Positions 40,556 to 44,232 of a stretch of 64,000 nucleotides of DNA are shown in pieces. Within the stretch, counting starts at the first letter, position 1. Each line of letters starts with the position of its first letter. Made by a program: the position numbers and the translations under genes. Source of the DNA: an uncultured Clostridia bacterium. GTDB lineage: Bacteria; Bacillota; Clostridia; Christensenellales; UBA1242. Where the stretch lies: contig CALWOV010000004.1 of NCBI GenBank assembly GCA_944383275.1, positions 4,957-68,956 on the forward strand, read 5' to 3'. The notes beneath the pieces were generated by a model. That model was given only the letters and a program-made list of their open reading frames with translations, did not search any database and was not told the DNA's origin.

Positions 40556-40641
40556 TGGTGGGCAGTGGTGGATTCGAACCACCGAAGTCTCCCGACAACA
40601 GATTTACAGTCTGCTCCATTTGGCCGCTCTGGAAACTGCCC
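40556..40641 (-). tRNA. tRNA-Tyr(GTA)
   Basis: Reverse complement GGGCAGT...CTGTAAA...ACTGCCCACCA with long variable arm. Confidence 0.95.
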
Positions 40642-40644
40642 CTA

Positions 40645-40720
40645 TGGAGCTGGCGAAAGGAATTGAACCTTCAACCTGCTGATTACAAGTCAGCTGCTCT
40701 GCCAATTGAGCTACGCCAGC
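40645..40720 (-). tRNA. tRNA-Thr(TGT)
   Basis: 76-nt cloverleaf, anticodon loop CTTGTAA, CCA end. Confidence 0.95.
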
Positions 40721-40864
40721 ATATTAGGTGTTGCCACCCTTTTTCAATATTATATTGAAATATATTTAAACAATAATTTCTTATTGTTATAAGCCTTTTT
40801 CTTAACGCAATAACTTAATTTTGCGCACTGTTAAAGGCACTAGTGTGCTGAACTAAGTCAGCGT

Positions 40865-40940
40865 TGGTGCCCCAGGCGGGACTTGAACCCGCGACACATG
40901 GATTTTCAGTCCAATGCTCTACCAACTGAGCTACCGGGGC
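40865..40940 (-). tRNA. tRNA-Phe(GAA)
   Basis: 76-nt cloverleaf, anticodon loop CTGAAAA, CCA end. Confidence 0.95.
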
Positions 40941-40951
40941 GCACAAAAAAA

Positions 40952-41028
40952 TGGTGGGACTTCAAGGACTCGAACCTTGGACCGATCGGTTATGAGCCGA
41001 TTGCTCTAACCAACTGAGCTAAAGTCCC
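40952..41028 (-). tRNA. tRNA(CAT), most likely Ile2 (lysidine) rather than Met
   Basis: Loop CTCATAA; body GGGACTTTAGCTCAGTTGGTTAGAGC resembles Firmicute tRNA-Ile2; lacks initiator features. Confidence 0.85.
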
Positions 41029-41057
41029 ATAGCATTTCTTTGTAAAAACAAAGAAAC

Positions 41058-41134
41058 TGGCGACCTAGAAGGGTCTCGAACCCTCGACCTCTACCGTGAC
41101 AGGGTAGCGCTCTAACCAACTGAGCTACTAGGCC
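41058..41134 (-). tRNA. tRNA-Asp(GTC)
   Basis: Loop CTGTCAC, GCCA end. Confidence 0.95.
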
Positions 41135-41165
41135 ACATAAAAAGTTATATCTCTGCCCAAGGCAG

Positions 41166-41242
41166 TGGTCGGGGTGGAGGGACTCGAACCCCCGACCCCT
41201 TGATCCCAAATCAAGTGCGCTAGCCAACTGCGCTACACCCCG
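41166..41242 (-). tRNA. tRNA-Pro(TGG)
   Basis: CGGGGTG acceptor stem, loop TTTGGGA, ACCA end. Confidence 0.95.
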
Positions 41243-41271
41243 ACAGTGATTTAAAGCGATATAACAACTTA

Positions 41272-41300
41272 ATAATACATTATTTTTTAACATTTGTCAA
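41272..41300 (-). promoter_or_regulatory. SigA promoter of the tRNA operon
   Basis: TTGACA-17bp-TATTAT on the minus strand. Confidence 0.7.
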
Positions 41301-41444
41301 CAAATTTTTAAAAAAAATTAAAATTATTACAAAAGATTTTTTATGCAAAAAATATAACTTTTTATGTTAAAAATTTTTTTATAAATTAAATGCTGATATA
41401 TCACTTTAAATTTAAAAACAGCTTAATTAAATACTTTTAACTCA

Positions 41445-42692
41445 TCACATATCATCTAAAGGAGATATTTCATCATCTGCATCAAAATAGTTTATGAAAT
41501 CTTTATCTAAAGTGTTAGCAGTTCTTAAAGCATAGAAGCCATATTTTTCTCTCATTTTATCCATTATTTTACTTAACTCTTTTTTCTTTTGATGTGATTT
41601 GTCATCAAATAATGTTATTTGTTCCACAACATTTTCACAATTCCTTAAACTACAAACAGACACCCTTATTGCTCTTATAGAAAGATTATCTAATTTCCAA
41701 TGTTTTTTAAACATATTTAAAGCAATTTCGGCAATTTCTGTTGCAACATTTGTATAATACGAAATACTTTCTGAATAGCCACGCCATTCAAAACTAGAAC
41801 TTTTCATTGAAAAATGAATGCATTTCCCTTCCAGATTTTTTTGTCTAAGCCTGAATGCAACTTTTTCACTTAATAGATAAATTAATGAAATAATATCCCC
41901 TTCTGTTGTTAAATCTTTAGATGTCGTCATTCCATTTCCAACGCTTTTTTGTTGCACAATTCCATCGGCAAGTTCAACTGCCGTTTCATCTTCACCTCGA
42001 GCAATTGCACTCATTTTTAAACCATTTATGCCAAAGTGTTGCTTTAAAAGCATTGGATCAGTAAAGGCTAAATCTTTTATTGTATGAATATTAAGTTTTT
42101 GCAATTTCTCCCAACTTCGTTTTCCAATCATTAAAAGAACATTTGCTGGCATATCCCAAATAAGTTGTTTAAAATTATTTCTATCAATTACCGTTGTTGC
42201 ATTAGGTTTTTTTAAATCACTTCCCAACTTTGCAAAATATTTATTAAACGACACCCCAACAGAAATAGTTAAACCACCTGTTTCCTCATATACAATATGT
42301 CTAAGTTTATCAGCAACTTCCCTGCCACTTCCAAACAAGTGTGCAGTTTCTGTTAAATCTATCCAACACTCGTCAGGTCCAAAACTTTCTACTCTATCGG
42401 AAAATCTTTTATATATATTTTTTATTTTTTCACTGTATTCTTGATAAATTGCGTGCTGTGGTGGCAAGCAAATAAGATTAGGGCACAAGCGTTTTGCTTC
42501 CCAAATTACATGCCCTGTTTTTATTCCCATTTCTTTTGCTATTTGATTTTTTGCTAATATAACACCGTGTCGCATTCTTGGATTTCCAGCAACAGCAACA
42601 GGCATTGTTTTTAACTTTGGGTTTAAAACGCATTCTACTGATGCATAAAAATTATTAACATCACAATGTAAAATAATTCTTTCTTTTTTCAT
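41445..42692 (-). CDS. dinB: Y-family DNA polymerase IV
   Basis: ILHCDVNNFYASVE, SFGPDECWIDL and SVGVSFNKYFAKLGSDLKKP. Confidence 0.92.
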   Translation of the reverse strand: MKKERIILHCDVNNFYASVECVLNPKLKTMPVAVAGNPRMRHGVILAKNQIAKEMGIKTGHVIWEAKRLCPNLICLPPQHAIYQEYSEKIKNIYKRFSDRVESFGPDECWIDLTETAHLFGSGREVADKLRHIVYEETGGLTISVGVSFNKYFAKLGSDLKKPNATTVIDRNNFKQLIWDMPANVLLMIGKRSWEKLQKLNIHTIKDLAFTDPMLLKQHFGINGLKMSAIARGEDETAVELADGIVQQKSVGNGMTTSKDLTTEGDIISLIYLLSEKVAFRLRQKNLEGKCIHFSMKSSSFEWRGYSESISYYTNVATEIAEIALNMFKKHWKLDNLSIRAIRVSVCSLRNCENVVEQITLFDDKSHQKKKELSKIMDKMREKYGFYALRTANTLDKDFINYFDADDEISPLDDM

Positions 42693-42974
42693 ATATCCCC
42701 TTAAAAACTAAAGTTAAAAAATGTTCATATGTTCTAATTATAGCATAAGAAAATTAAGATGTCTATATTTTAGTTAAAATTATTAAAACAAATATTAACT
42801 TAAATAAAAAGATATTTTATAAAATTTACTTTAATTTTTATATTAGTTTTGACTAAATGGTTTTTAGCAATTTTATAGATTATTATTAAATAAGTAATAG
42901 CTTTTATTTGGTTTTAATAATAAAAATAATAAATTAATAATAAATTAAAAAAAGTTAAAAATATTGCTATAAAA

Positions 42975-43011
42975 AAATAACAATTTTTAACCAAGTTAAA
43001 AATTGTTATTT
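42975..43011 (-). terminator. Perfect 17-bp hairpin terminator bounding the repeat array
   Basis: aaataacaatttttaac-caa-gttaaaaattgttattt with a T-run on the minus strand. Confidence 0.75.
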
Positions 43012-43572
43012 CGTGTTATATGAAGTTTTATTTTTAAGTGTTAATAAGAATTTACAAGCAAAATTGCTATCTATTCAAACTGAGGTGGTAAAAATTAAAA
43101 TATTTATTGTAAAACATTTTTATTTTACAGAAAATTGCAATAAATTAAAATTTATATCATACTGTTTATACTATAAAAGTTTACTTTTATATTTACATAA
43201 ACAGCTCAAAATTTAAGTTGTGTTACTAAAAATTTAAAAATTAAAATTTTTACGACATTTAATTTATGTTATCGGAAGTTTTGTCTGAATGCACACGAAG
43301 CAAAGCGAGTGTATATTCAAGCAAAACTGATGTTAATTCAAACAGTGTTGCCGTTGGGACAACGGATTTGCGTTTAGCAAATTGGTTTGCGAACATCGTG
43401 AGCAAAACAACATCACATAGTTTATGTTATCGGAAGTCGAACCAAGCACAAATTAGTAGTATGTGAGTGAGACTGATGTTCATTCAAACTGTGATGGTGG
43501 GCAAAGCACGCAAATTCGTTAGAATTTATTAAAATTTTATGTTAGTAAAATTTTAACATCGCATAGTTTATA
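43012..43572. repeat. Tandem array (~4 units) of structured repeats with alternating conserved blocks and variable hairpin spacers
   Basis: TTTATGTTATCGGAAGT at 43263 and 43421; ACTGATGTTMATTCAAACWGTGWTG at 43326 and 43472; AACATCRCATAGTTTAT at 43409 and 43555; decayed versions at 43014, 43055-43089 and 43154-43182. Confidence 0.85.
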
Positions 43573-44232
43573 TTAATGGTTTTCTGCTTTGGTCCAATCA
43601 ATAATTTTAATTTTACCAATTAATGGCAATGGCTCTGCCTTTCCATCTGATGCATTACAAATGCCAAGAATGGTATATATAACACACACAGCAAATGAAA
43701 CAATCAGCAATATTAACCCTAATGGTTGCCAAACAAAAATTAAAGCAATAGAAATTATGTAAGCACTTATGGCAAAAATAAACAAAACTAGACCTTGATT
43801 GCAATGATACATTGCAAATTTTTCGTTTCTGTTCCAACAAAAAGGAATAAAAAACAGAATATAAGCAAGTGCCGCTGTAAGTTGGATTGTTGGCTTAGAT
43901 GCATTTATGTAATCATATTTTAAATCAGCATTAAATTGTGGGTCATCTGCCCTTTCATATTTAACTTTTGCAACAGTTTGGGTTTCTGTTTTTGGTGCGT
44001 TTTTTCTAGATTTTGCAATTGTTTTATTTGCCGTTGTTTTTCGTGTGGTTGTTTTTCGAGTAGTTGTTTTTGTTGCCGATTTTTTTGCAGTTGAAGATAC
44101 AGTTTTTTTAGCTGCAGTTGTTTTTGCAACAACTTTTTTGTTGGTTGCAGAAGCGCTTGTTTTTTCAGATTGTGCTTTAGTTGAAGTTTTGGCTTTTACG
44201 CTGTTTTCGTCAACTTTCTTCCTTTCTGCCAT
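43573..44232 (-). CDS. Membrane protein with Lys/Thr/Ala-rich N-terminus and DUF4870-like 3-TM C-terminus
   Basis: KTTTRKTTTRKTT repeats; ALAYILFFIP...FAMYHCNQGLVL...LPLIG membrane domain. Confidence 0.8.
   Translation of the reverse strand: MAERKKVDENSVKAKTSTKAQSEKTSASATNKKVVAKTTAAKKTVSSTAKKSATKTTTRKTTTRKTTANKTIAKSRKNAPKTETQTVAKVKYERADDPQFNADLKYDYINASKPTIQLTAALAYILFFIPFCWNRNEKFAMYHCNQGLVLFIFAISAYIISIALIFVWQPLGLILLIVSFAVCVIYTILGICNASDGKAEPLPLIGKIKIIDWTKAENH

Follow-up and report, generated by a model that had tools for sequence, protein, structure and literature searches.

A dispersed, folded repeat with a split dif-like site in uncultured gut Clostridia

The sequence analysed here (the window) is 64,000 nt of contig CALWOV010000004.1 from an uncultured Clostridia bacterium. 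Its positions 43012-43572 almost certainly belong to a mobile repeat family and hold two intact tandem copies, together with some decayed ones, of a 146-158-nt non-coding dispersed repeat that has proliferated within this genome and is patchily distributed among uncultured gut Clostridia related to this one. A first-pass annotation, made from the sequence alone, had described the region as a polarised array of two alternating complementary blocks, R1 and R2, with variable spacers that keep the same fold, and had read it as an element of the repetitive extragenic palindromic or bacterial interspersed mosaic element (REP/BIME) type, or as an otherwise undescribed self-propagating element. The observation is confirmed in part, and its interpretation is supported in part. 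Both blocks are real, R1 lying at 43411-43437 with halves near 43260 and 43555 and R2 at 43326-43350 and 43472-43496, and neither was matched in any of 100 shuffles of the window. R2 proved to be an imperfect reverse complement of R1, every unit has the same orientation, and the region folds better than shuffles on both strands (z about -3.1). The picture of a local array did not hold, since the blocks belong to a dispersed family, and neither did that of variable spacers, each of which is found again, about 87-98% identical, in further copies elsewhere in the genome. The two units in the window differ because they belong to two subtypes, A and B. With two block types and 'spacers' that recur at other loci, the region was rightly set apart from CRISPR.

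This genome (G000 in the coordinates given here, in which other G-numbers are relatives) comprises 1.06 Mb in 34 contigs, has 29% G+C and is 90% complete. A covariance model that we built from 50 diverse units returned 45 matches in it at a cut-off of E ≤ 0.001, grouped into 31 loci; this genome-wide scan, which the first-pass annotation had proposed, revealed copies well beyond the window. Type A (169 nt) and type B (157 nt) each recur in the genome, again at about 87-98% identity, and chimeric units exist that combine the P1 hairpin of A with the second half of B. Units are solitary or stand in head-to-tail arrays in which neighbours share exactly one junction site, and 12 loci hold two or more matches, always on the same strand. 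A repeat block lies within 200 nt of 20 of the 68 contig ends, which makes the repeat one of the main causes of breaks in the assembly. The unit contains no open reading frame (ORF). Rfam 15 yielded no family at gathering score, and its best permissive match in the region was a chance hit to mir-19 (24 bits, E 0.15). The 45 genome matches, the lack of an Rfam match and the strong covariation described below uphold the earlier proposal of a self-propagating, dispersed, undescribed and structure-conserving element. A diverged 141-nt subfamily, in which R2 is ACTGACGACATTTCAAAC and the left end AAAATTAGGAAGG, forms a three-unit tandem array at G000:C1:103780-104300 and gives weak model matches.

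Single-sequence folds of 50 diverse units revealed one common architecture with two domains on the + strand. In the first domain, the 5' half of R2 (CUGAUGNUNAU) and the left end (UAUUAUCGGAAG) form a helix with an invariant G.U pair and two G/A mismatches side by side, and P1, a long hairpin that is very variable in sequence and length, caps it. In the second domain, the 3' half of R2 and the right end form P2, which encloses the small variable hairpins P3-P5. Invariant columns are confined to the left end, R2 and the right end. The intact type A unit of the window (43261-43429, + strand; 169 nt including both shared ends; covariance-model match G000:C4:48217-48385, 121 bits) carries, from left to right, the central TTTATG (43263-43268), the left-end arm TTATCGGAAGT (43269-43279), P1, R2 (43326-43350), P3-P5 (43351-43408) and the right-end arm ACATCACATAG (43410-43420). 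The intact type B unit (43419-43575, + strand; 157 nt; covariance-model match, 122 bits) has P1b first, followed by R2 (43472-43496), P3-P5 (43497-43554), the right-end arm ACATCGCATAG (43556-43566) and the central TTTATA (43567-43572).

The pairing is preserved across genomes. In 118 units aligned to the model, 87.6% of cells were standard pairs versus 69.6% in shuffles, 37 of 47 pairs had changes on both sides, and the covariation score of 0.414 (versus 0.139) was matched by none of 500 shuffles, all on an alignment that was fitted by the covariance model and is thereby biased toward structure. Slid controls were 35-49% paired. A compensatory example is found in P2, where GUGAUG/CAUCAC is replaced by GGAAGU/ACUUCC. 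The earlier claim that structure is kept while sequence changes thus holds between genomes and not among the copies within this genome. G.U pairs outnumber A.C pairs by 334 to 125 (218 to 125 without the invariant pair), which indicates the + strand as the folding strand. When folded as DNA, the permuted junction scored z -2.7 whichever strand was used, which does not discriminate between them.

Strong covariation and an excess of G.U over A.C on one strand are also what a structured RNA would show, whether a functional multicopy small RNA, a cis-acting element of untranslated regions (UTRs) or an RNA copied back by reverse transcriptase in the manner of a short interspersed nuclear element. 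The window array lies inside a 3' UTR, and 6 of 10 high-copy genomes encode a reverse transcriptase whose open frame measures ~350-390 aa. We nonetheless consider an RNA element unlikely. Copies are unbiased in orientation relative to flanking genes (14 co-directional, 12 not), the transcribed strand in the window would be the complement of the folding strand, and the invariant letters lie in the site-forming helices, outside loops and junctions. Reverse transcriptase was found neither in this genome nor in the other 4 of the 10 high-copy genomes, and the lack of an Rfam match argues in the same direction. Furthermore, of 68 distinct P1 hairpins, 35 carry a 3-nt loop with a C-G closing pair (C-GAA-G in 20 of them); such loops are characteristic of highly stable DNA mini-hairpins more than of RNA, a hint that favours a DNA over an RNA fold. 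Examples of the reverse transcriptase gene lie at G168:C1:221381-221983, G155:C111:1513-2112 and G073:C11:33064-33663, away from element copies.

The distribution of the element across genomes is patchy and burst-like, as a mobile element would give. BLAST detected it in 4 of 40 relatives, and the covariance model in 38 of the 151 genomes that were sampled from the bacterial family, spread over 25 of 58 genera, with 1 to at least 19 copies per carrier genome. None of the four other species of the window's own genus in the sample carries it, and 2 of 145 genomes from other families of the same order were positive. A degenerate pattern scan of species-representative genomes gave at least 110 stretches, and among the matches listed nearly all were from metagenome-assembled genomes (MAGs) of uncultured Clostridia, Christensenella(les) or Catabacter. 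Sequencing runs listed as containing the locus are mostly chicken-gut metagenomes. Among viral contigs, a pattern scan picked out three stretches, none of which matched the covariance model, and BLAST against plasmid and phage collections gave no match. In open-access literature text we found no description of such an element.

When the two ends of a unit are joined they form a 28-nt site with an 11-6-11 layout, which is whole at every junction and split between the ends of a lone unit. The junction of units A and B in the window (43410-43437, + strand) reads ACATCACATAG-TTTATG-TTATCGGAAGT and has this dif-like layout. The family junction is ACATCACATAG-TTTATA-TTATCGGAAGT, with 11-nt arms and an inner ATAG/TTAT symmetry around the central 6 nt, and the arms seen in other MAGs match each other as perfect inverted repeats (ACTTCCGATAG...TTATCGGAAGT); the arm-plus-centre form for comparison with a native dif site is ACTTCCGATAA-TATAAA. 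The reverse complement of the family consensus junction shares 21 of 28 positions with the dif site of B. subtilis, which was defined by experiment and is quoted in PMC3025954, and the window copy shares 20 of 28. Only 15 positions in the whole genome reach at least 21/28, and 13 of these are element sites; by whole-genome scan, the chance of such a match within one 160-nt family is ~3 in 10,000. R2 is an imperfect inverted copy of the same 28-nt site, and in a circular or tandem single strand it would therefore pair with the site as a mismatched duplex. P1 would cap one end of this duplex and P3-P5 the other.

Insertion favours a similar sequence. From this genome and MAG loci we collected 130 distinct left and 110 distinct right flanks. 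On the left, positions -9 to -6 are A56 T68 A70 A47 (%) and positions -5 to -1, directly before ATTATCGGAAG, are T79 T94 T96 A98 T99 (%); on the right, positions +1 to +5 after ATAGTTTAT are A90 T70 T84 A65 T58 (%), and both sides are at background further out. The preferred target is ATAA-TTTATA-TTAT, the same sequence that forms the inner core both of the site in the element and of dif-type sites generally. Deviations in the left flank have no counterpart on the right. Insertion therefore makes no target duplication, and the shared 9-10 nt are, to judge from the flank sequences, the residue of a crossover inside a common core. Two loci of G168 measure 298 and 590 nt against 104 and 148 nt in the element-free G113 of the same genus, an excess close to the size of the insert.

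A small, AT-rich, non-coding, folded, intergenic, multi-copy repeat could be an ordinary MITE (miniature inverted-repeat transposable element), moved by the DDE transposase of an insertion sequence (IS). The termini are direct and not inverted repeats and there is no target duplication, rve and DDE_Tnp_1 were not found in this genome, and none of 110 loci contains an ORF-bearing full-length parent, all of which makes this explanation very unlikely. Subterminal hairpins, insertion beside a fixed short sequence and, again, the lack of target duplication would fit a REP/BIME-like element or an IS200/IS605-derived palindrome-associated transposable element (PATE), mobilised in single-stranded form by a Y1 HUH transposase such as TnpA or a REP-associated tyrosine transposase (RAYT), and a broken IS200-type tnpA lies ~600 nt from one copy. 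This gene is the only Y1 gene in the genome, and it holds three stop codons. In the family sample of 151 genomes, 38 carry the element, 24 a Y1 gene and 7 both, where ~6 are expected by chance, and a Y1 gene is lacking from five high-copy genomes (G070, G073, G130, G155 and G168). Copies show no preferred orientation relative to GC skew (11 same, 13 opposite), conservation of the target extends to both flanks of the insertion point, and TnpB was not found in this genome. We therefore judge movement by a Y1 transposase to be improbable, and the REP/BIME membership with a RAYT or HUH enzyme suggested by the first-pass annotation is not upheld, the sole Y1 gene being broken and co-occurrence close to chance. 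The broken tnpA (G000:C2:115933-116247; L123 1501-1815, minus strand) sits at a contig end beside a two-unit array and retains the HUH motif and the catalytic Y, interrupted by one TGA and two TAA stops.

As a mechanism for the element as a whole, we tentatively propose, as a possibility somewhat short of even, that it is non-autonomous and is mobilised by a tyrosine recombinase of the host, which would work on a folded strand. The repeat encodes no enzyme and would move by conservative site-specific recombination between its dif-like site and chromosomal pseudo-sites resembling ATAA-TTTATA-TTAT. The substrate would probably be a folded single strand, with R2 paired to the split site, or an extruded cruciform. 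Insertion at a resident copy's own end would recreate a full site, which would account for polar head-to-tail arrays of mixed subtypes. The best candidate for the enzyme would be the XerS-like recombinase that is universal in the family. A tyrosine recombinase match (PF00589) was found in 148 of 151 genomes, and a ~347-aa recombinase is the top PF00589 match in almost every genome listed. Its best named match is XerS (NF003462), over the full length at 189 bits and under the family cut-off of 267. In G098, which has 15 element copies, this XerS-like recombinase is the sole PF00589 match. XerS reportedly binds strongly to one half-site, and weakly and cooperatively to the other (PMC2965235), a behaviour that would suit an element of which one arm is invariant while the other can co-vary with R2. 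Compared with the left half of the L. lactis difSL site, the invariant arm agrees at 8 of 11 positions, a weak match in our own alignment. In four of the six inspected loci (two genera), lexA, miaA and mutL are neighbours of the XerS-like gene, and the mutL-miaA-lexA-XerS-like block is kept in G011 (L126, G011:C4:93500-99500, with the XerS-like gene at G011:C4:95676-96719), G003, G168 and G070.

Searches for other enzymes gave no candidate that tracks the element. Clustering of neighbouring genes at 110 loci recovered no recurrent family beside the element, only housekeeping families, and none of reverse transcriptase, rve, resolvase, DDE_Tnp_1 and TnpB was detected in this 90%-complete genome. 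IS110 transposase was found in 0 of 5 genomes, and Y2 transposase in 0 of 10, a result of little weight because the control of that search was silent everywhere. Serine recombinases are present in 5 of 10 high-copy genomes. The element could instead owe its movement to a dedicated enzyme whose gene lies elsewhere (on an unbinned plasmid or a phage, say), or could spread only by homologous recombination and gene conversion between copies; this alternative is one that we consider possible, at rather lower odds. Patchy bursts, with none of the four other species of the genus carrying the element against 45 matches here, would suit it, as would the incompleteness of MAGs and the serine recombinases and extra integrases of some carriers. 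On the other side, no candidate enzyme follows the element, no copy turned up in the viral, phage and plasmid collections, and homologous recombination alone leaves the specific target core unexplained. The one PF00589 match in this genome is a 457-aa phage-type integrase, which lies at G000:C2:17563-21108 (L124) beside a 168-aa DNA methyltransferase-like ORF and a 365-aa ORF of no assigned family; this locus may be a prophage or island remnant.

Several points weigh against movement by a host Xer recombinase. The link to Xer is argued from resemblance and elimination. The XerS-like gene, lexA and miaA had no tblastn match in this assembly; the mutL-miaA-lexA-XerS-like block, unmatched in an assembly that is 90% complete, would therefore lie in the missing ~10%. 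Known Xer-exploiting elements integrate at dif, whereas this element occupies 31 dispersed loci, and the reverse transcriptase of 6 of 10 high-copy genomes leaves room for an RNA route. The exact empty site was not recovered, G168 and G113 being only 70-78% identical. Finally, the native dif site of these bacteria was not found, all five candidates having failed, and mimicry of the host dif is therefore unverified; in the element-free, 97% complete G113, the one near-match inspected was coding and no intergenic junction-like site was identified.

The sequences rejected as dif are of several kinds. A palindrome-pattern candidate in G003 turned out to be a promoter. The pattern CCARTAA-N6-TTRTGTTTRC, seemingly a single-copy dif in 95 of the 151 genomes, turned out to encode the conserved motif K-H-N-L-x-Y-W and constitutes a trap for dif prediction by pattern. 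G000 C1:46293 and G113 C3:39181 are coding, and G113 C3:173054 is a terminator. G000 C24:57-84 matches B. subtilis dif at 23 of 28 positions, with extra flank matches that are within chance over ~30 flanks; the sequence upstream of it may be a decayed unit. A dif-looking 23-mer, CCAATAG-TTTAAA-TTATGTTTAC, lies inside an ORF at G000:C3:40069-40091, where it encodes K-H-N-L-x-Y-W, and occurs once per genome in many genomes of the family.

The element does not show the defining features of the REP/BIME-RAYT system, DDE-moved MITEs, PATEs, integron attC sites or CRISPR. REPs are 20-40-nt palindromes. Like REPs and BIMEs, the element is extragenic, palindromic and found in mosaic tandem arrays; unlike them, it has a unit of 146-158 nt with helices P0-P5 and no associated Y1 gene. 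It shares with integron attC sites a substrate defined by the fold of one strand, pairing that is kept while sequence varies, conserved boxes at the hairpin base and polar arrays, but it has no cassettes or ORFs between sites, its copies are dispersed, and no integron integrase was identified. The integron core consensus is GTTRRRY, and on reading the element sequences we saw no such core.

Closer parallels come from elements that exploit Xer recombination. In the (+) strand of CTX phage, two inverted dif-like sites ~90 nt apart form a 150-nt forked hairpin that XerCD recombine with dif (PMC3089051, PMC3442271), and other Xer-exploiting elements keep the XerC-side arm and the centre while the other arm diverges (PMC5357621). 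On those accounts, the element resembles CTX attP(+) and the integrative mobile elements exploiting Xer (IMEXs) in having no recombinase of its own, a dif-like site in which one arm and the centre are well kept and the other arm is divergent, an inverted dif-like pair folded in a single strand of ~150 nt, and tandem copies at the site. The combination of a dif-like site and no recombinase of its own, by which IMEXs are recognised, is present in the element. It differs from them in consisting of the 150-nt hairpin alone, without genes, and in lying at ~31 dispersed loci, where those elements integrate at the chromosomal dif. The host here appears to have a single XerS-like recombinase in place of XerC and XerD, on which the element would have to depend. 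That the element is a gene-less 'mini-IMEX', a 150-nt self-folding dif mimic that multiplies at dozens of pseudo-dif sites through the host's single Xer and a single-stranded intermediate, is an idea that we hold to be doubtful though worth stating.

In behaviour the element is akin to another group. Pneumococcal BOX elements and other small interspersed repeats (RUP, SPRITE, Correia and ERIC) are modular, shorter than 200 nt, intergenic, highly folded and multi-copy (PMC3049150), traits shared by this element with its shuffled modules (A, B and chimeras) and its breaking of assemblies. BOX and RUP have terminal inverted repeats and target duplications (PMC3049150); the element has neither and carries a split dif-like site. 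By this analogy, it behaves like a mobile small interspersed repeat of the modular pneumococcal BOX kind.

In the window, the array occupies the intergenic gap 42693-43572 between the DNA polymerase IV gene dinB (41445-42692; NCBIfam NF002848, 333 bits) and a 219-aa ORF (43573-44232, from the ORF list), both on the minus strand and outside the element. The bounds given in the first-pass annotation are accurate: the array runs from the stop codon of the 219-aa ORF (TTA, 43573-43575) to a perfect 17-bp hairpin at 42975-43011. These three bases of TTA are at once the last of the type B unit and the stop codon of the minus-strand ORF, and a stop codon is likewise supplied by a repeat end at G000:C3:86527. 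The hairpin pairs perfectly over 17 bp around a 3-nt loop and leads into a T run on the minus strand; from its sequence it is the likely terminator of the 219-aa gene's transcript, which would place the array between that gene's stop codon and its terminator. With fewer than three G-C pairs in its stem, it escaped a simple terminator scan. In the relative G003, a terminator directly follows the orthologous stop codon. In the 219-aa protein, a long N-terminal half of low complexity, rich in K, T and A, is followed by a C-terminal half that is hydrophobic, and no NCBIfam family matched the protein. A dinB promoter-like site lies at 42737-42765 (promoter scan 11/12).

Between the hairpin and unit A, about two decayed head-to-tail units occupy 43012-43262 (+ strand) and close with a degenerate right-end arm, ACGACATTTAA, at 43252-43262. 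The earlier suggestion of units decaying leftwards is weakly supported: direct repeats match the intact units at 72-79% identity, and the covariance model gave no match to this stretch at its E ≤ 0.001 threshold. Decayed units often flank intact ones at other loci in the genome as well. In G003 (G003:C17:39226-42966, L137), the order is dinB (+), ~6 tRNA genes counted by eye, a terminator and the membrane gene (-). The block of dinB and tRNA genes (window 40559-42692) is inverted here relative to G003, and the array lies at one breakpoint, beside the membrane gene's stop codon; at the other breakpoint no repeat copy was seen.

However the element moves, the family is a major reason why assemblies of small-genome gut Clostridia MAGs break, it marks rearrangement breakpoints, as at the inverted dinB-tRNA block here, and it offers a well-covarying 150-nt fold for study. 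If the proposed mechanism is true, a housekeeping dimer-resolution recombinase would drive the genome-wide spread of a parasite that encodes nothing, and the folded-strand substrates known from CTX phage and integrons would gain a third, minimal class. Were the gene-less, Xer-driven reading to hold, the element would be the first Xer-driven analogue of a MITE and close to a new class.

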